IMG/VR virus record: IMGVR_UViG_3300027365_000010
Location: 28,454 to 92,453 of that record
Source: a virus
Direction: 5' to 3' (one strand)
Length of the DNA: 64,000 nucleotides
Part shown: positions 3,863-29,459 of the stretch, piece after piece
Layout of the letters: each line of letters begins with the position of its first letter
How positions within the stretch are numbered: position 1 is the stretch's first letter
Position numbers and translations under genes: made by a program
The notes under the pieces: generated by a model
Seen by the model: only the letters and a program-made list of their open reading frames with translations
Told to the model about the DNA's origin: nothing
Database searches by the model: none

Positions 3863-4762
3863 TTAAACTCCGTGCTTTAATTTCATTTTGTTTATGAAAT
3901 CTGAAAATCTTCTGTCATTAAAAATTTCACTAGGTATATCCCAAGGTGTATAATACGCGCTATTACACTTACAAAACTTAACGTAATTATCCCCGGTTTC
4001 TAGGGACGCTTTAAAAACCCTAATTTGGCCATAGAATGTTTTTCCTCTAAGGTCTAATGCAATAGAATATGGAGATATGCCATTTTTCTTTACGAAAGTA
4101 ACCATAACATCCACATCCTCATCTGTCCAACCTTTGGATTCAATTCTGTTTTTACCAAATAGAATATTGTACTTGGAATACAGTGACTGTATATTGCCAT
4201 ACCACACAGATTGCTCTGTGCGACTGGGGAAGTGATGAAAATATTCTCTCGGATTCCTTACATACGAGCTATTCCAAAAATGACGCTTCAGTTCTTGTCG
4301 GTCCTCTTTACTTACATTTTGAAAAAAATTAAACTTTTCAGCAAACGTCTCAAGCGCTATATCGGAGGTATTGTTAGTAACGATCCATGATATCAAACAT
4401 TTGGTTGTCTCAATATCGTATGTTTCTAACATGGCTATTCTTACAGGATATTCTATTCGACCAGTAGATAGAATGTAATTAAGTAGTGTCAAATCTTTGT
4501 TCTTAAAATAAAGATGAAAACACGGTTCATAATTAAATAGCTGAATTTTCATATGAAATGGCAGTGCATCAAGCTCTAATGAAAAATCATAAAATGCCTG
4601 TTGATACAATTCATTCATTATGTAAACAGTGGAATTTTCATTCACACTCATTGGTATACTATACCTAAGAACCGATTCTGGTATAGACTGTAAATATTCG
4701 ACTATGGCCTCATCACTAACAGGATACCCAAAGAGTGTTGCGTTGCTTCTATAATTTTCCAC
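3863..4762 (-). CDS. Hypothetical protein
   Basis: 299-aa ORF, GTG start with AGGAGG RBS and its own sigma70 promoter. Confidence 0.75.
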   Translation of the reverse strand: MENYRSNATLFGYPVSDEAIVEYLQSIPESVLRYSIPMSVNENSTVYIMNELYQQAFYDFSLELDALPFHMKIQLFNYEPCFHLYFKNKDLTLLNYILSTGRIEYPVRIAMLETYDIETTKCLISWIVTNNTSDIALETFAEKFNFFQNVSKEDRQELKRHFWNSSYVRNPREYFHHFPSRTEQSVWYGNIQSLYSKYNILFGKNRIESKGWTDEDVDVMVTFVKKNGISPYSIALDLRGKTFYGQIRVFKASLETGDNYVKFCKCNSAYYTPWDIPSEIFNDRRFSDFINKMKLKHGV

Positions 4763-4782
4763 TACTATACCTCCTGTGCTAT

Positions 4783-4811
4783 ATTCTAACGATGATGGAG
4801 GCTGTTGTCAA
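4783..4811 (-). promoter_or_regulatory. Sigma70-type early promoter
   Basis: TTGACA-17 bp-TAGAAT on the minus strand. Confidence 0.75.
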
Positions 4812-4821
4812 CTAAGATAAT

Positions 4822-4843
4822 TAACGGCGCATACGCGCCGTTA
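4822..4843 (-). terminator. Hairpin, probable terminator after the RNR gene
   Basis: TAACGGCGC-ATAC-GCGCCGTTA inverted repeat just past the RNR stop codon. Confidence 0.55.
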
Positions 4844-4858
4844 GTCTAAGGTTCATGA

Positions 4859-7069
4859 TTAAAGCTCGCACTGTCTTCCCGAACATGCTTGCGCAGCCAT
4901 TGTATCAACTTCGGTATATACCTGTGATTTTTTAGCGTTTATTAGATCTGGGATTTTATCATTTTGTATGATAGTCATCCATCTGGAATTATTATAGCTA
5001 TCTTTCAGATAATTACATATAGTTTTAAGACAACCATTGAAGTGACGGTCTGCTTGTTGTTTTATATTTTCAACACAGAGGTACTTTATGTATGAGATAT
5101 TTTCTATATCCTCACCCCATCCTAGTACAGTATCACACGCTTTCCATAAATCGTTGTCAAATACTCTAAGAGCAAAGTCAATCTGAGGCTTCATGAAATC
5201 AGGTTCATATCCGTAAAAGTCTAGAATATCCTGCGCTTCGAATACCTCAGTAAAAGGCGCTTGTGCGTATGCTTTGTCGCCCATCTCTGATAGTAATGAG
5301 ACGCCTGTAAACCATTGTCTATTTTGGAATATAAACTCTTCCACTTCATCCCAATCATCAACTGAGATAGTATTTGATACGTTATGACGTTGTGTGGGAT
5401 CTACACACAACTCAACATTAGTACCCTCTTCTACCCAATAGCGCTGTGCTTCTAATACGTATTCGAGCTGCTTAACACCCATGACATCTTTTTTATAGAT
5501 AGATCCTTCTGGGCTTATAATAGGGAAGCTTACAACCTTATCAGTCTTATTATTAGACCAAACGCTGTCTTGTACCATCTCTGGATTAGCATCAACAATT
5601 TCTTTCAAAATATCGCTTTGTTCATTCATTTGGACATTACGGAAATACATAGGTGCATGTTCAGCATGTATTCCTGACGCACTACCTAGTATGGTACTCG
5701 TATTACCAGAAGGTTTAGTGCATGTGGTTCTTGATGCGACATTTATACCAATAATTTCAGCAACAATTCTATTCCACTTTTTAACTTCATGCGCACCTTC
5801 AATCATATTGTCTTTATTGAAAAGTATATCAGGGTTATTCATCCACCCAGTTATTGAAACACCTAAAAGTGCTTCTCTTTCAACAATTCTCTTTGATTCT
5901 TCAGTCAAATATGTGAAGTCTGTATACCCAGCCTGTAGTGTTCCTAAAATACTTGCCGCTTTTGCCGCTTTCAATAAATCATCTTTTGAACGACATAACG
6001 CACCATTAATTTCAGTGAGATTACACATAGAAAAACCACTGTTCCCTGTAACTAAGTCATAAGAACGTAAGCCAATCTCACAACATGGGTTCATAAGCTG
6101 TTCATAGTCATCAACAAATACGAATCCGGGCTCACCAACCTGCTTCACATTTTGGATAATTTCTTTCCACTCATATCTGGTGATCTCATCTCGTTTAATA
6201 ACGACACTATTGTTTGATCGTCCACGTTGTGGGTTAGTCACAAACCAATCGCCAGTCTTAGCAGTTAACATTTCCTCATCGTCTTTTGAAAATAAACAAA
6301 TTGTAGCGCTTCTTCGTACACCACCTGAGAGTACTGCATCACTCATGTACATCACAAAATCATAAGCAACTATAGGTCTGATTTTAGTTATTAATTGCTT
6401 CGACAGTTCACCTTCCAAAAGGCTTTCACAATGCTCAATACTATTTTTAAGACCATCTGGTCCCGGTGCTTTAAATCCTCCTGATATAAATGCACCTTTA
6501 GGACGAATCTGACTATAATCAAATTCTACTTTATAACCAGAGTATTCAGGGAACGGTGCATCTTCCGTAACATATGACGATATCAGGACACCAAACGCAT
6601 CACTCCAACCTTCAATGGAATCTGGTATAGTAAACGTCTTTGTTTTGTTGTGACGCTTTTTAATAGCCGGTAATTTACCTACATGATGCTTCTGTACAGA
6701 AAATCCGACACCCGCTCCACATAAAAGCATAAACATTGTCTCTTGAAAAAAACGTGGTCTATCACAATATGAAGCCGAACAGTTATACAGTCGAGTTGGA
6801 TGTTTGATTAGTTGCTCCCCACCAAACTGCAACGCTCTCTGGGAACCAACTATCTTTTTATTTAAATAATAATCTTCAACAAAGTCTATCATTTTAGATA
6901 GCTTGTCTGTCATCTTATTTTTATAGTATTCACGATGCATGTCCATCACACGATATACCGCGTCTTCCCATGTTTCGCTTCGGTCTTTATCATTTTGCCA
7001 TCGTGAATAGTCCATATAGAATTTAGAGTCCGCCATTAATTTTTTGTAGTCTAAGTGCATGTTTTTCAT
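4859..7069 (-). CDS. nrdJ: Ribonucleotide reductase, monomeric class II (adenosylcobalamin-dependent, RTPR-type)
   Basis: LYNC, LLCGAGVGFSV, GGVRRSA, NPCCEI, CNLTEIN, KPSGN, C-terminal CSGRQCEL cysteine pair; no class I YY motif and no adjacent beta subunit. Confidence 0.85.
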   Translation of the reverse strand: MKNMHLDYKKLMADSKFYMDYSRWQNDKDRSETWEDAVYRVMDMHREYYKNKMTDKLSKMIDFVEDYYLNKKIVGSQRALQFGGEQLIKHPTRLYNCSASYCDRPRFFQETMFMLLCGAGVGFSVQKHHVGKLPAIKKRHNKTKTFTIPDSIEGWSDAFGVLISSYVTEDAPFPEYSGYKVEFDYSQIRPKGAFISGGFKAPGPDGLKNSIEHCESLLEGELSKQLITKIRPIVAYDFVMYMSDAVLSGGVRRSATICLFSKDDEEMLTAKTGDWFVTNPQRGRSNNSVVIKRDEITRYEWKEIIQNVKQVGEPGFVFVDDYEQLMNPCCEIGLRSYDLVTGNSGFSMCNLTEINGALCRSKDDLLKAAKAASILGTLQAGYTDFTYLTEESKRIVEREALLGVSITGWMNNPDILFNKDNMIEGAHEVKKWNRIVAEIIGINVASRTTCTKPSGNTSTILGSASGIHAEHAPMYFRNVQMNEQSDILKEIVDANPEMVQDSVWSNNKTDKVVSFPIISPEGSIYKKDVMGVKQLEYVLEAQRYWVEEGTNVELCVDPTQRHNVSNTISVDDWDEVEEFIFQNRQWFTGVSLLSEMGDKAYAQAPFTEVFEAQDILDFYGYEPDFMKPQIDFALRVFDNDLWKACDTVLGWGEDIENISYIKYLCVENIKQQADRHFNGCLKTICNYLKDSYNNSRWMTIIQNDKIPDLINAKKSQVYTEVDTMAAQACSGRQCEL

Positions 7070-8304: not shown

Positions 8305-9112
8305 AACAATAAACGAGAAACTTATACAAACTCCACCAAAGACTCCTAATGAAGGTCAGGTAATTGTAATGGCTGGATCTGCGGGTTCTGGTAAAAACTT
8401 TTCAATTGATAATTTCACCGATATAGGTAATAAATTCAAAGTTTTGGATATTGACGATTTACAACATCTTGTGGTAAAGAGCAAGGTTATATTCAAACGC
8501 TTCAGAGAATTTTTAGAAAAGATAGACTCGCCTTTCGCTGACTACACTGACAGCGACTTACGTGATCCGAGTATTTTCCGCGATAGTGAATTTGTGGATA
8601 CTATCTATGATTTTCTCACGGTGAATAATATACCAAGAAGTCGTTTAGACGTTTTCTTACGTACAAATAAAAAAAGTGAGAGATTACCAAATGTCGTTAT
8701 CAATACAACTTTCGGTAACGTAGACAATGTAAAAAAGAAACTGCAAGTTTTGATGGATCATGGTTATAAGAAAGAAAATATAAACCTACTCTGGATATTA
8801 ACTACCAAAGAAGAATCTATGATGCGAAACCTATCTAGAGAAAGAACTGTTAAAGGGGATTATCTAGAAAAGAACTATGCCGAAACAGTACGTAATATGA
8901 AAGAGATTATTTCAAAACAGTCCGGTCTATTAAACACATATATCGATGGTAAGATATGGGCCGTCTTTAATACGTCATTGTTAACAAGGTTTCACGATAA
9001 TAGTAAGCTTGTTAAAGATTTCACTTATGTAACATTAAAAGACGAAAACGGATGGAACAAAAGTGAAATCGAAAAGCTTAATCGTTGGATTTCAGGAATC
9101 GGACGGAGCTGA
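8297..9112 (+). CDS. P-loop kinase-fold protein (zeta-toxin/AAA_33-like)
   Basis: Walker A GSAGSGKN, DID motif, lid-like RNLSRER; 3' end overlaps the convergent tdk gene by 35 bp. Confidence 0.65.
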   Translation: MNKTINEKLIQTPPKTPNEGQVIVMAGSAGSGKNFSIDNFTDIGNKFKVLDIDDLQHLVVKSKVIFKRFREFLEKIDSPFADYTDSDLRDPSIFRDSEFVDTIYDFLTVNNIPRSRLDVFLRTNKKSERLPNVVINTTFGNVDNVKKKLQVLMDHGYKKENINLLWILTTKEESMMRNLSRERTVKGDYLEKNYAETVRNMKEIISKQSGLLNTYIDGKIWAVFNTSLLTRFHDNSKLVKDFTYVTLKDENGWNKSEIEKLNRWISGIGRS

Positions 9113-9680
9113 GTGTCTTCCAATGTCTCCGGCATACGGAGACATACTTATCCTCAGATCCAATTTCAACCTGATTGCCATCCCTAACTACATTGTACTC
9201 AGAATCGTATCTTAAAATATGTGTCGCCTTAGACATACAGAAGCATAGTTGCTTAATTTCCTCTAATTTATCAGCATGTTGGAATAATTCACAACTACCT
9301 TCAAATAAGTTCCCAAAGCAATCAGTGCGTAACCCATAACATACTACTGGGATATCCATAAAATCTACAATATCCGTAAGCTGTCTAATATTGTATTTGC
9401 TCAGAAACTGGGCTTCATCTACCACAATACATGAGGGTTCATACTCAATGCTATTTAAAATATCCTGAATGGACTGGTCTTTAGCGTATGGTATCGCTTC
9501 TTGTTTAATACCCAATCGTGATTCTATGAAATACGAACCGTCCTCATATGAACGCATATCTAAACTCGATGTAAGCAAAAGCGTCTTATTATCGAATACA
9601 CTGTAGTTATGCGCAAGTTGTAGTAGATGCGTACTCTTTCCTGCGTTCATTACTGAGTATACAAACTTTAGCTTTGCCAT
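9078..9680 (-). CDS. tdk: Thymidine kinase (TK1 type)
   Basis: MNAGKST, VDEAQFL, YGLRTD, Zn lasso CFC...YVSVCRRHW. Confidence 0.95.
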   Translation of the reverse strand: MAKLKFVYSVMNAGKSTHLLQLAHNYSVFDNKTLLLTSSLDMRSYEDGSYFIESRLGIKQEAIPYAKDQSIQDILNSIEYEPSCIVVDEAQFLSKYNIRQLTDIVDFMDIPVVCYGLRTDCFGNLFEGSCELFQHADKLEEIKQLCFCMSKATHILRYDSEYNVVRDGNQVEIGSEDKYVSVCRRHWKTLSSVRFLKSND

Positions 9681-11938: not shown

Positions 11939-12247
11939 TTACTTACCTTGATTTTCAAGAGTTACGAGTTTGATTTGCATGAAATCTTCTGGGAAGAAAT
12001 TGGTTGTATAGAAGATAGCATGCTTCTTTGTAACACTGTTGTACACGCCAAACGTTTCCAGTGTTCCAGTTTTCTTGCTCTTATGGAAGCATTTATAGAC
12101 TCGACTGTTATCAGCATGGAGGTTGATAAAGTCCAGTGCTTCTAGGACCAGCGAATCCAGCGGCATACGATTTTCGTTTTGTTGACGAAAGCCGCGCTGA
12201 TTACGTGGGTTGCGTTGACGGTTACGATTTTGATTTTGTTGTGTCAT
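11939..12247 (-). CDS. Hypothetical protein with Q/N/R-rich N-terminus
   Basis: GAGG RBS, upstream TTGACA promoter at about 12312-12339, downstream hairpin at about 11909-11929. Confidence 0.75.
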   Translation of the reverse strand: MTQQNQNRNRQRNPRNQRGFRQQNENRMPLDSLVLEALDFINLHADNSRVYKCFHKSKKTGTLETFGVYNSVTKKHAIFYTTNFFPEDFMQIKLVTLENQGK

Positions 12248-12355
12248 AAAAAATCCTCAATAGGAGTTAGTTAGTTTTAGTTTACTTAGATCGCTCATCG
12301 ATCTGTTACCTAGAATACCATTTTCAGAATCTTTGTCAACACATCAAAATAAAAT

Positions 12356-13252
12356 TTATATTGGTTGAATATCAACAACTTTGAAGTACGTATTACCGAT
12401 CAAAATTTCGTCACCATGTGTGATGTTTTCAATGGTTGTCTTTATATCGTTCACTGTGAACATGTACGTCTCAGGAACATCAACATAATAATCGTCTTCA
12501 AAAATTACCCTAAGCATTGGCTGTTTTTTGAATTCTATAAACTCGTCGCCGTTAAGCTCGGTGTACAACGCTTCCAACGCAATGTCTTTTTCTTCTTTTG
12601 TTTCCTTGTCTCTAACACGGACCATAGTACCTGCATCTAAACAATACAGTAGTGATATTGAAAGTCCACGACCAGTATTTTCAGTTGTAGTCTGTGCAAC
12701 AATAGACGACTTATTGTCAAATACTATGCGTCCACTCGCATAGGTGGTAACACCACAACGAATGTGATCAGGGCATTCCTCATATGCATAGCGTATCCGA
12801 TCCATGATTTCGGCAGCACCAGTGCCTTTATGAGCCGCTACAAGGATGTTTGTATCTCTTACGAACATCGCATACCATAATAGATATAACGCTGCACAGG
12901 CGGTATTATGACTTACTATACCATTACTGTAGTACTGTTGTGAATGATCATTGACTTGAATATCATACATAGTTTCTGAGTACCCTAAACTTTCGACTCT
13001 TGTCACAGACTCTAATCCATTATCGGTAAGAATGTGATCACCTACACTTATGTTTTTCACGAACGTTTCAATGCAACCATCTTTGATCACTATGTGATCA
13101 TCTGCACATTTTAAACTAAAATTTTCAGTACAGATCTCCCATACCTCAAACTCAATGGTCGTATGTAAGCTCATTATATCTTTATATCCATTGGGAGTTA
13201 ACACTTCCCAATCATCAACGATGATTGAATCCGTTATTTTCTTCTCACTCAT
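12356..13252 (-). CDS. Terminase large subunit middle fragment flanked by split-intein halves (IntC-TerL segment-IntN)
   Basis: aa1-116 Hint C-part ending SHN followed by T; aa117-203 align with the T4 gp17 region between Walker A and Walker B (ILVAAHK...AAEIMDR...FDNKSSI...GRGLSISLLY); aa204 onward begins with intein block A CLDAGTMV. Confidence 0.9.
   Translation of the reverse strand: MSEKKITDSIIVDDWEVLTPNGYKDIMSLHTTIEFEVWEICTENFSLKCADDHIVIKDGCIETFVKNISVGDHILTDNGLESVTRVESLGYSETMYDIQVNDHSQQYYSNGIVSHNTACAALYLLWYAMFVRDTNILVAAHKGTGAAEIMDRIRYAYEECPDHIRCGVTTYASGRIVFDNKSSIVAQTTTENTGRGLSISLLYCLDAGTMVRVRDKETKEEKDIALEALYTELNGDEFIEFKKQPMLRVIFEDDYYVDVPETYMFTVNDIKTTIENITHGDEILIGNTYFKVVDIQPI
12359..12643 (-). 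mobile_element. Split intein N-fragment
   Basis: Starts Cys1 CLDAGTMVRV...IALEALY directly after the Walker B hydrophobic strand; lacks blocks F/G and the terminal HN. Confidence 0.8.
12905..13252 (-). mobile_element. Split intein C-fragment (long IntC, atypical split)
   Basis: No block A; contains VLTPNGY, block B-like KCADDH, block F MYDIQV, block G YYSNGIVSHN, +1 Thr. Confidence 0.88.
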
Positions 13253-13274
13253 AATTTTACCTTTACTGTGTGAA

Positions 13275-13282
13275 TATTTATA
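13275..13282 (-). promoter_or_regulatory. T4-type late promoter for the split terminase fragment
   Basis: TATAAATA on the minus strand, 22 bp upstream of the ATG. Confidence 0.7.
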
Positions 13283-13335
13283 TCACAATACCTTACTACG
13301 TCAATAAATACTATAAAACAACAAAGGATAATAAC

Positions 13336-14094
13336 ATGCCCGAATCAAAAACTATGAAACAAGCCGTACAAGAGGTTCGTTTAACACTTGGCGATGGATT
13401 GGTTGATCTAGAACTTAGTAAAGAGCATATCAATTATGCATTAGATTTTGCAATGAAGGTGTACCGCCAACGAGCTTCTAATGCTACTGCGGAAACAGGT
13501 ACGATCTTTAAATATAAAAAATTCACACAACAATATGACTTGAGTGATACTGATATCGTTGACATCAAAGAAATAAAAAGAAACACAATAGGGTCAAGTG
13601 CAGCAACTGATTACACTCAAGATCCATTCTTGATGATGTATATGAACCAGATGATGCATGCTTTAAATCAAAATATGACATATGGAAGTATTGCCACGGT
13701 ACATATACAACATAACTATATCAAAACACTGGAACAGATTGTGGCTGGTCGCATAGACTATGCTTGGAATCCAAGCACAAAAATATTACAGATATTCAAT
13801 AAAATAGGACGTGATGAGGTATTTTTACTTGTTACTGAATCATATCGTAGCAATGATGAACTACTTAATGATGTTTATATTCGTCCATGGATTATCTCGT
13901 ATGCCGCAGCAAAGTCGAAGATGATGTTAGGTGAAGGTCGTTCTAAATTTCAGAACTTGGCAGGTCCGCAAGGTGGTGTTACACTCAATGGAAGCGAATT
14001 GAAACAAGAAGCTCAGACTGAATTGGAAAAGCTGGAAGAGCAGTTGAAAAATTCAGATACTGACGATGAAGGCTATAACATTTATTTTGGCTAA
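13336..14094 (+). CDS. Neck protein / head-tail adaptor (T4 gp13-like)
   Basis: LGDGLVDLEL N-terminus, WIISYAAAKSK...GEGRSKF...GPQGGVTLNG C-terminus; ATG after AAGGA RBS. Confidence 0.85.
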   Translation: MPESKTMKQAVQEVRLTLGDGLVDLELSKEHINYALDFAMKVYRQRASNATAETGTIFKYKKFTQQYDLSDTDIVDIKEIKRNTIGSSAATDYTQDPFLMMYMNQMMHALNQNMTYGSIATVHIQHNYIKTLEQIVAGRIDYAWNPSTKILQIFNKIGRDEVFLLVTESYRSNDELLNDVYIRPWIISYAAAKSKMMLGEGRSKFQNLAGPQGGVTLNGSELKQEAQTELEKLEEQLKNSDTDDEGYNIYFG

Positions 14095-27701: not shown

Positions 27702-29459
27702 CTACCAGCTTTTTAATACTCTATGAAGGCTTTGGATAACATCTATGTATTTTTTCTTGAAATACCGCTCAAACAACTCCATAGAATCTTGATTAGGATT
27801 GCCTTCATCAAACTCTTCAAAGAATTCGCTCAAATCAATTCTTTTAGAAATTGCCTTAAGTGAACTATATAGATATGACATAGTAAAACCATACTTTTCT
27901 TTCACTACGCTATTGGCCATCTTGGACAACTTCTTGTAGTACTCTTTGTTGTACTCATCAGTATATGCAAAGTTTAGTAAATATAATGCCCTGAATAGAT
28001 GCGTACCTATTTCACCATATCGCTCATGGTAATTCTCACCACCAAAGAATCGCAGTTCAATACGCCCACCAAGTATATCATAATCTTTGAAGTTAATAGT
28101 TTGAAATTTTTCTTTATTATTCGTATTCGAGATATACTGTTCTAAGTTCTTAACGACATCCACTAAGCTATCATTTTCTAAAACACTAGTTAGAATGTAC
28201 TTATCGATTACCTTTTCTATTTCATATATTACAATTTCTTGCAAATCCAGTACATGACTTCTCTCAGGAAAAAATTCACTTATATAATCTATGTCCATAA
28301 TAGTAATAAACTTCGCTATGTTAAAGTCATCATGATCATGAATACGTGACGATATAGATATATGCATACCAGCATAGCTTTCAACTCGGTGATTCTGCAA
28401 ATACTTAAACATGGTCTCGATATTAAGCAATGCCTCATCAACATCCATTTTCTCTGTAATCACTTCTATCATTTCGTCGTGTTCATCAACAATCTTATCG
28501 ATATGAGGAATCTGATCTCTAATTTCATCTTCGTTCACTTCATAGTTCTGTATAATATCTTCTAAATTTTCTCTCGCAGTGTCCACGAGATGCCTAGTTA
28601 TACCCAAAACATCATGATAATTCTCCACATACGATATATAATCAGGAAGCGTAAAATCACCATAACTGAAACCATCTGGCTCTACGGTATAAGAAAGATG
28701 TTCTATATCAAGTTCAGTTGTGATCAATGAAGAATTAGACAACATCTCAATTGCATCTGATACATCCACAATTTCATCTTTATCAATGGAATCTAAATAT
28801 TCATCATTAGTTATTTCCGTAATGTTGAAAAATCGTTCATCAAATAAGGTATTGGACTGATAAAAGTTATAGAAATCTTTCATCATCTCACTATTGGCTC
28901 CGAAAAGATCACCATCAAAATATACATCTAATACAGTACATATATCATACATCTCTCTAAGATTAATTTCATGGTTGTATACAATATCTTTTATGCTGTA
29001 AAGCTCTACTTCCCCTTCATCATTTACTGAGTCTTTCAAAACATCCCTATAAAGAATAACATAAGATGCTTTCTTATCATCGGGGAATAAATCTTGCGTC
29101 TCAGTATCAGAAGATTGAAACTCTCTTATTTTTTTAACTAATCGTGTTGTTAATGTAAGAAAGTCCATTACCTTTGACGGTACTGAACTATCCATGTCAT
29201 GGACACTTTCAACATAATCAGCAATATATTCGGAATATTCAGGTTCTAGAAACATATCGTGGTTATCATAGAGTTTGTCTAAATCATGAAGTATTTCATC
29301 ATCAGCCTGTGATATATCAATGACATCATCGAAGTTAACCTCTTCGCCTTCATAATTAAACTCATATTCGATACCAACAAAATATTCATCAGCATGATCT
29401 AAAATAAACTGTTTTTCTTTATTACCAAACTTAATCCCCTCAAATAACTCTTTACTCAT
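27702..29459 (-). CDS. Putative amidoligase (COOH-NH2 ligase fold), paralogue 2
   Basis: GIEYE, EVIT, GMHISIS, KFQTINF, RIELRFFGG. Confidence 0.75.
   Translation of the reverse strand: MSKELFEGIKFGNKEKQFILDHADEYFVGIEYEFNYEGEEVNFDDVIDISQADDEILHDLDKLYDNHDMFLEPEYSEYIADYVESVHDMDSSVPSKVMDFLTLTTRLVKKIREFQSSDTETQDLFPDDKKASYVILYRDVLKDSVNDEGEVELYSIKDIVYNHEINLREMYDICTVLDVYFDGDLFGANSEMMKDFYNFYQSNTLFDERFFNITEITNDEYLDSIDKDEIVDVSDAIEMLSNSSLITTELDIEHLSYTVEPDGFSYGDFTLPDYISYVENYHDVLGITRHLVDTARENLEDIIQNYEVNEDEIRDQIPHIDKIVDEHDEMIEVITEKMDVDEALLNIETMFKYLQNHRVESYAGMHISISSRIHDHDDFNIAKFITIMDIDYISEFFPERSHVLDLQEIVIYEIEKVIDKYILTSVLENDSLVDVVKNLEQYISNTNNKEKFQTINFKDYDILGGRIELRFFGGENYHERYGEIGTHLFRALYLLNFAYTDEYNKEYYKKLSKMANSVVKEKYGFTMSYLYSSLKAISKRIDLSEFFEEFDEGNPNQDSMELFERYFKKKYIDVIQSLHRVLKSW

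Follow-up and report, generated by a model that had tools for sequence, protein, structure and literature searches.

The 298-residue product of one open reading frame in the stretch of viral DNA analysed here (64,000 nucleotides, positions 28,454 to 92,453 of IMG/VR virus record IMGVR_UViG_3300027365_000010, hereafter the window) is confirmed, at the level of sequence and modelled structure, as a real middle piece of a T4-type terminase large subunit (TerL) made in at least three pieces. Very probably, the complete TerL of this phage would be produced from such separate pieces, with two protein trans-splicing reactions as the most likely means of joining them. The order of parts within the product is predicted to be the C-terminal half of one split intein (IntC1), a TerL extein of 87 residues and the N-terminal half of a second split intein (IntN2), the last consisting of a head and a tail. 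The initial annotation had already proposed a terminase middle gene of this length, and its layout and boundaries stand, to which must be added that the gene lies on the minus strand (Table 1), a point missing from that annotation. A database cluster (P0005) is 100% identical to the product. An AlphaFold model of the product, made with a 37-homolog alignment (mean pLDDT 74), was compared with all PDB cluster representatives. Among 37 full-length homologs, residues A50, D51, H53, M95, D97, S114, H115, N116, T117, C204, L205 and D206 are invariant.

Table 1. Positions of the terminase middle gene, its predicted parts and its upstream motifs in the window
Feature	Position	Strand	Extent or basis
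Whole ORF, IntC1 - TerL middle extein - IntN2 (head and tail)	12356..13252	-	298 aa plus stop; ATG 13250-13252, TAA 12356-12358
IntC1, aa 1-116	12905..13252	-	Pfam PF14890, VidaL/CatC matches, HINT fold, invariant catalytic columns
Middle extein, aa 117-203 (T117...Y203), 87 aa	12644..12904	-	T4 gp17 match, fold comparison with 3cpe
IntN2 head, aa 204 to about 242	12527..12643	-	Invariant residues; collinear with short-form IntN2
IntN2 tail, aa 243-298	12359..12526	-	AlphaFold, fold search, HHalign against IntC2, dN/dS
TATAAATA, T4-late-promoter-like octamer	13275..13282	-	Motif match, 22 nt upstream of ATG
AAAGG, ribosome-binding-site-like	13260-13264	-	7 nt upstream of ATG

The assignment to TerL comes from the middle of the product. 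Residues 116-210 align with residues 191-285 of T4 gp17 (construct numbering; 95 residues, E 8e-12), residues 97-228 of the model match the gp17 ATPase domain (PDB 3cpe; Z 8.6 over 120 residues), and the product matches the terminase family PHROG 5989 (E 3e-35). The counterpart of the extein in gp17 starts at the Thr of the Walker A GKT and extends as far as the Tyr immediately before the Walker B Asp and the catalytic Glu. The earlier placement of the extein, past Walker A and up to the acidic residues of Walker B, is upheld by both the alignment and the fold match. The frame begins past the GK, stops short of the DE and contains no nuclease domain; in other words, the product appears to be a fragment of TerL and not a whole TerL, the features that it lacks being carried on the N and C pieces of relatives. 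The length of the extein is 87 residues in all stand-alone middle pieces among the best 120 clusters, with the exception of one at 89 residues.

The part that precedes the extein has the features of the C-half of an atypically split intein, namely block B as C-A-D-D-H (residues 49-53, with ADDH at 50-53), block F as MYD (95-97) and block G as IVSHN (112-116, with SHN at 114-116), followed by T117; ADDH, MYD, SHN and T117 are invariant in the 37 homologs. Pfam Intein_splicing (PF14890) covers blocks F and G (E 7e-7), and phmmer matches residues 15-116 to VidaL (E 4e-6) and CatC (E 1e-5), both of them solved atypically split TerL inteins. Indeed, modelled residues 3-105 adopt the HINT fold when compared with the PDB (VidaL, Z 10.0; Cat, Z 9.7), and IntC1 would constitute a HINT domain of 116 residues without only its first strand pair.

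After the extein come Cys 204 and LDAGTMV, with the stop codon 95 residues further on, the features of an N-terminal intein half. The initial annotation took residues 204-298 as a single such half; the Cys-initiated N-half is sound, but the region resolves into two parts, an N-half of about 40 residues and a degenerate copy of the HINT core of 56 residues. The head (C204-L-D, a block A hairpin and a short helix) is collinear both with the short-form IntN2 of 49 clusters and with contiguous inteins at the same site (clusters P0123 and P0142, site 2), and C204, L205, D206, D215 and Y230 are invariant in the homolog alignment. It is the predicted functional N-half of a second atypically split intein. 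Among homologs IntN2 occurs in two forms, one of 30-61 residues (30-45 in nearly all; 49 clusters) and one of 95-106 residues (38 clusters), with the window gene and that of the cultured Salicola phage SCTP-2 both belonging to the latter.

The tail, when modelled alone with the family alignment, gives a confident structure (AlphaFold, pLDDT 91-94) that superposes on the central HINT strands (blocks N2/B/N4), with VIA-align scores of Z 8.8 against PhoPolII and Z 8.7 against residues 43-100 of gp41-1 (rmsd 1.6 A over 56 residues). All of the top 28 matches in its fold search are inteins or HINT domains. By HHalign, the tail matches residues 23-81 of IntC2, the C-half of the second intein carried by the C pieces of relatives, at a probability of 94.5% (E 8e-8), and its match to IntC1 of the same protein is weak (probability 10-21%). 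It is on account of this fold search and of the HHalign comparison with IntC2 that the tail is taken as a HINT-core copy; a Pfam scan of IntN2 by itself gave a chance-level match only. In the tail, P260 and Y263 stand in for the Thr and His of block B, both at positions that vary among homologs, and IntC2 keeps the corresponding TPEH, such that the catalytic copy of the core is presumably that of IntC2. The second split would therefore be of an overlapping kind, in which the HINT core is present in both halves. The tail is nevertheless under strong purifying selection and not in decay: measured against a relative that is 87% identical, it shows a dN of 0.047 with dS saturated at about 1.7, alongside dN values of 0.031 for the extein and 0.151 for IntC1. 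Purifying selection is seen in the extein, head and tail alike, with dN of 0.03-0.05 against saturated dS. As the tail is closer to IntC2 than to IntC1, a duplication of the site-2 intein which left overlapping fragments fits as its possible origin.

The proposal that other genes supply the remainder of TerL was examined in the source genome and in relatives. The source viral contig is 92,453 bp long and, by CheckV, 21% complete, corresponding to a whole genome of near 440 kb. No N or C pieces of TerL, nor other intein pieces, were found on it with Pfam Terminase_6N, Terminase_6C and Intein_splicing, with the pieces of relatives as queries (the N pieces of Agrobacterium phage Atu_ph07 and SCTP-2 and the C piece of SCTP-2) or with six-frame motifs; given that the contig is only 21% complete, their absence there says nothing about their absence from the phage. 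The predicted N and C pieces are both present in SCTP-2 (MF360958.1), the relative with the best annotation and a cultured phage with a complete genome of 440,001 bp. Its gp267 (ASV44282.1, 256428-257321) is an ortholog of the middle piece, 55% identical and made up of the same four parts, the long IntN2 tail among them. Its gp534 (ASV44549.1, 429356-429748) holds the TerL N-terminus to ARQLGK, followed by an IntN of 43 residues that begins CVDYET. Its gp224 (ASV44239.1, 215993-218077) is the C piece, starting with an IntC2 of 112 residues (block B TTDH, ending in VSQ) and continuing with CDEFAF, a complete cis intein, what remains of the ATPase and the Terminase_6C nuclease. The three genes occupy both strands, with as much as 213 kb between them, and each is annotated 'terminase large subunit'. 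A search of the T4-type families in this genome revealed no intact T4-type terL (there is one Terminase_6C match, and one Terminase_6N match at fragment level only, in gp267), while the complementary pieces are present.

A closer relative of the window gene, 87% identical in the middle piece, lies on a 218-kb IMG/VR contig (G001), where the C piece has an IntC2 of 110 residues with CTPEH and an SSN end that is followed by CDELAF. TPEH and SN/CDE are kept in nine C-piece clusters of the close clade and RQxGK/C in five N pieces of the SCTP-2 clade, and close C-piece relatives (P0133, P0134) are found on contigs of 458-462 kb. In P0142 and P0123 the IntN2 head and IntC2 are fused at the same site as a mini-intein of about 153 residues, which is the reason for regarding the two as halves of one intein. 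In short, both complementary intein halves are found in SCTP-2, the C partner in the 218-kb contig, and neither on the 92-kb source contig. The earlier notion of three separately encoded polypeptides and two trans-splicing reactions is in this way sustained by the relatives (N, middle and C pieces in SCTP-2, the C piece on the 218-kb contig), but not from the source genome alone.

Several further observations were made on these relatives. Some IntC2 sequences end in Gln (VSQ/CDE or SHQ/CDE), as in SCTP-2 gp224 (positions 3994-6078 of locus L018), P0145, P0146, P0101 and P0052; in the clade closest to the window, IntC2 ends SSN/CDE, not in Gln. SCTP-2 is heavily colonised by inteins, with twelve Intein_splicing matches in about eight open frames. 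Its thymidine kinase gene stands tail-to-tail with the terminase N piece; the thymidine kinase of the window (9078-9680, minus strand) has no terminase N piece alongside. Another IMG/VR contig (G007, 249,994 bp; locus L123, 1091-3131) carries a 128-residue N piece (PRQMGK/CVRGNT) and, directly after it, a pair of paralogs with IntC1 that barely differ over their first ~170 residues. Of these, one is a normal middle piece of 249 residues; the other, of 300 residues, has a diverged extein, a contiguous Walker B (LVYFDELALV) and an early stop. The two would presumably compete for the single N piece, and the C piece is about 17 kb away. A third TerL split site, downstream of the ATPase core (..RFRRE(Y/H)x / C(I/V)..SVVTVKW..), is seen in P0052, P0074, P0082 and P0123, and is combined variously with sites 1 and 2, such that some phages should need four pieces. 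The metagenomic P0101 (508 residues) has a permuted order, IntC2/CDELAF..extein..REHN/C-IntN of site 3 and then IntC1, an 87-residue extein and IntN2, apparently without a stop; two terminase pieces are apparently fused through IntN-IntC, and this may be read-through in gene calling. Five complete IMG/VR genomes of 328-462 kb, selected by N-terminal TerL similarity, gave extein-only matches to single ORFs of 524-874 residues and are not of the three-piece type.

With the partners of relatives in place, the assembly can be set out in molecular terms. IntC1 would bind an IntN1 of about 40 residues that forms the C-terminal end of an N piece with a gene of its own, in which the TerL N-terminus runs as far as RQxGK, and the first splice would join the ...GK to T117, thereby restoring the Walker A GKT. 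The IntN2 head, of about 40 residues from C204 on, would bind an IntC2 of about 110 residues at the N-terminus of a separate C piece. The second splice would then join ...LLY203 to Cys-Asp-Glu, restoring Walker B and the catalytic Glu and attaching the remaining ATPase together with the nuclease domain. The C pieces of relatives also contain one ordinary cis-splicing intein. We infer that the partner genes lie in the unsequenced part of the source genome and that covalent splicing takes place.

Other explanations of the gene can be put forward. The one most easily dismissed is that a contiguous terL has been broken artificially, by an assembly or frameshift error, which might be feared of a window taken from a metagenomic contig. 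A Logan contig from an independent assembly (7.5 kb; run X1, which may itself be the source sample) is identical over 12068-13700 and spans both ends of the gene, 100% identical pieces of the gene (12364-13212) occur in runs of three other studies of freshwater and aquatic metagenomes, and the same boundaries recur in 87 clusters and in the genome of a cultured phage; misassembly, raised at the outset as a possible undoing of the proposal, is on this evidence scarcely credible. Stand-alone pieces with the order IntC1, 87 residues, IntN2 account for 87 of the best 120 clusters (clustered at 90% identity), and 82 of those 87 have the SHN/T junction; the layout is common in uncultured phages. It may be added that the phage, or a strain very near to it, occurs beyond the subsurface sample, as shown by the identical pieces in the three other studies. 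That the gene could instead be the decaying remnant of a terL copy that was fractured, with an intact terL in the other 79% of the genome, draws on the fact that the partners and the remaining genome are unseen, and on the divergent second IntC1-bearing paralog beside the normal middle piece in the 249,994-bp contig, by which duplicates of terL pieces do occur. Against this stand a dN/dS of about 0.02-0.03, the intact frame in the 87 clusters with invariant catalytic residues, and the complete SCTP-2 genome with its three pieces and no intact T4-type terL, and a relic is accordingly held to be very unlikely.

The remaining two alternatives accept the gene as functional and differ as to what the intein halves do. 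Split-intein halves bind tightly, and they might serve here as dimerisation modules only, the terminase working unspliced by non-covalent assembly; no splicing product has been observed for the terminase middle-piece family, which leaves room for this idea. It is nonetheless quite unlikely, since the residues of the splicing chemistry (C204, H53, H115-N116 and T117) are invariant or nearly so, the partners keep the IntN1 Cys1, the IntC2 TPEH, the terminal Asn or Gln and the Cys+1, and the ATPase site would otherwise have its Walker A and Walker B motifs interrupted by two bulky HINT domains. Alternatively, IntN2 might react with IntC1 of the same chain to release a cyclic 87-residue peptide with a function of its own, in the manner of a SICLOPPS cassette, whose IntC-extein-IntN topology the product shares; the IntN2 head, moreover, shares about 50% identity with IntN1, which is the cognate partner of IntC1. 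The extein is, however, an ordinary and strongly conserved core of the TerL ATPase fold, the relatives have no other copy of the segment and so need it, and there are dedicated partners for both intein halves. Cyclisation would then be a side reaction at most, and as the purpose of the gene it is highly improbable. Joining of separate pieces by two trans-splicing reactions is, in consequence, the preferred reading.

Trans-splicing of this kind places a demand on the two inteins, which are, as far as their sequences tell, paralogs. In SCTP-2, 12 of 23 aligned residues agree between the heads of IntN1 and IntN2, with the common pattern C-[VL]-D-x-x-T-x-[IV]-x-V-[RK]-x-K-x-T-G-E, and IntC1 and IntC2 are 27-28% identical (HHalign probability 98%). 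Given this paralogy and the similar IntN heads, mis-pairing is conceivable, whether as cyclisation of the extein or as a joining of the N piece straight to the C piece. In this regard, the IntN of GOS-TerL is exchangeable for that of AceL-TerL (review PMC11766414), such that cross-reaction among TerL inteins is not far-fetched. The mutual orthogonality of the two inteins would, in other words, be a requirement of the arrangement and not a finding. At a guess, the IntN2 tail could hold the short head, which would otherwise be disordered, in a folded state, mask it from IntC1 of the same chain or add affinity for IntC2. The more specific suggestion that this pseudo-core is an intramolecular mask and specificity module, blocking cyclisation with IntC1 of the same chain and directing IntN2 to IntC2, is a tentative one, and on balance doubtful.

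As to the expression of the gene, both of the motifs that the initial annotation described as a late promoter and a ribosome-binding site are present (Table 1), but the former is a motif match only, the octamer being unenriched in the AT-rich window (14 copies of TATAAATA against 11.5 expected). Six of the 14 copies stand 17-26 nt ahead of an ATG ORF start, and the placement of the copy before the terminase piece is no more than consistent with a late promoter of the T4 type. Scans for sigma-70 promoters and terminators returned nothing exceeding shuffles, and no RNA runs containing the stretch were listed. The divergent neighbour (13270-14094, plus strand) is a homolog of head-tail adaptors (PHROG 211, E 3e-35). 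The listed start of this neighbour, GTG 13270, overlaps the promoter-like sequence before the terminase piece, and ATG 13337, which has a GGA-rich site ahead of it, is a likelier start. A NUDIX hydrolase, a dCMP deaminase and a thymidine kinase are also encoded nearby, and there is no endonuclease gene adjacent to the terminase piece.

The individual parts of the system have known counterparts. GOS-TerL and AceL-TerL are naturally, and atypically, split inteins of phage TerL (Dassa et al. 2009, PMC2677866; review PMC11766414), and together with Cat, the consensus of the two (PDB 6DSL), and VidaL (PDB 6VGV/6VGW) they share with the window gene the T4-type TerL host protein, the unusual split point and the combination of a short IntN (block A only) with a long IntC of 104-122 residues in which all the other blocks lie. 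Indeed, an IntC2 of the partner type matches CatC (E 1e-7). These four are described as one split into two pieces, whereas the window gene bears halves of two split inteins, and its type of terminase is in at least three, genome-dispersed pieces. There are also differences of detail: IntC1 is followed by Thr+1 where Cat has Cys+1, IntC2 is followed by Cys+1 as in Cat, and IntN2 of the window gene has 95 residues, with its redundant pseudo-core tail, against 25-37 in known atypically split inteins. Atu_ph07 terL (MF403008.1) has the same first split site (RQLGK/IntN; IntC..SHN/TTVAAA) with a short IntN and a long IntC, but consists of only two pieces in adjacent ORFs, with a contiguous Walker B (VLYVDEFAF) and an IntN that starts with Ser. 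SCTP-2 itself differs from the window phage in being another species, with a hypersaline host; its IntC2 ends in Gln, not Asn. Among man-made systems, engineered tandem trans-splicing (PMC7210297, PMC7090010) uses the same IntC-X-IntN design of middle fragment; its intein pairs are unrelated and chosen for orthogonality, while those of the window gene are natural and paralogous.

How such an arrangement came about is suggested by the wider set of TerL inteins. In the fractured genes described by Dassa et al. (2009, PMC2677866), a split intein interrupts a phage gene that is essential, and the terminase locus shows the same atypical break as the window gene; both halves lie on the same strand and flank a homing endonuclease gene, as in the GOS terminase, where the endonuclease gene lies between the intein halves. 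The window gene differs in having no adjacent endonuclease, and the relatives of the window phage in having their pieces far apart (up to 213 kb in SCTP-2). Contiguous inteins occur at the same TerL sites in Vibrio phage vB_VmeM-32, P0142 and P0123. Related phages thus show contiguous forms, two-piece forms, forms with an endonuclease between the halves and forms with a third site, which fits repeated selfish invasion, fracture and, in these very large genomes, dispersal through rearrangement. Most likely, therefore, the arrangement arose by invasions of terL by selfish inteins and homing endonucleases followed by genome rearrangement, and is not a regulatory device. The suggestion that it acts as an AND gate on packaging finds no support, the intermediates among relatives fitting the history of a selfish element.

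Full-text searches, mostly outside subscription journals, returned no description of a natural protein joined via two split inteins, nor of the arrangement in SCTP-2; the earlier statement that no natural example was known agrees with this literature, which yielded two-piece TerL inteins and engineered three-fragment ligations only. The parts, in other words, are of a known kind, and what appears to be undescribed is the dispersed, multi-piece arrangement, along with an overlapping split that has a selected pseudo-core tail. The practical interest lies in the fact that atypically split TerL inteins are already prized as tools, their short N-half being accessible to synthesis. A natural protein needing two of them would supply pre-evolved pairs that work together in one cell, which is the need of engineered three-part ligations, and would show how related split inteins avoid mis-pairing. 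If the tail is indeed a mask, it would be a natural answer to the orthogonality problem in tandem trans-splicing; the redundant, selected pseudo-core of IntN2 may also bear on the origin of split inteins, through overlapping fragments after duplication, or on partner choice. For genome annotation, the consequence is that automated procedures will under-call or triple-call terL in such genomes. For the biology of these phages, it would mean that a whole clade of giant phages relies on post-translational assembly from dispersed genes for an essential late enzyme.
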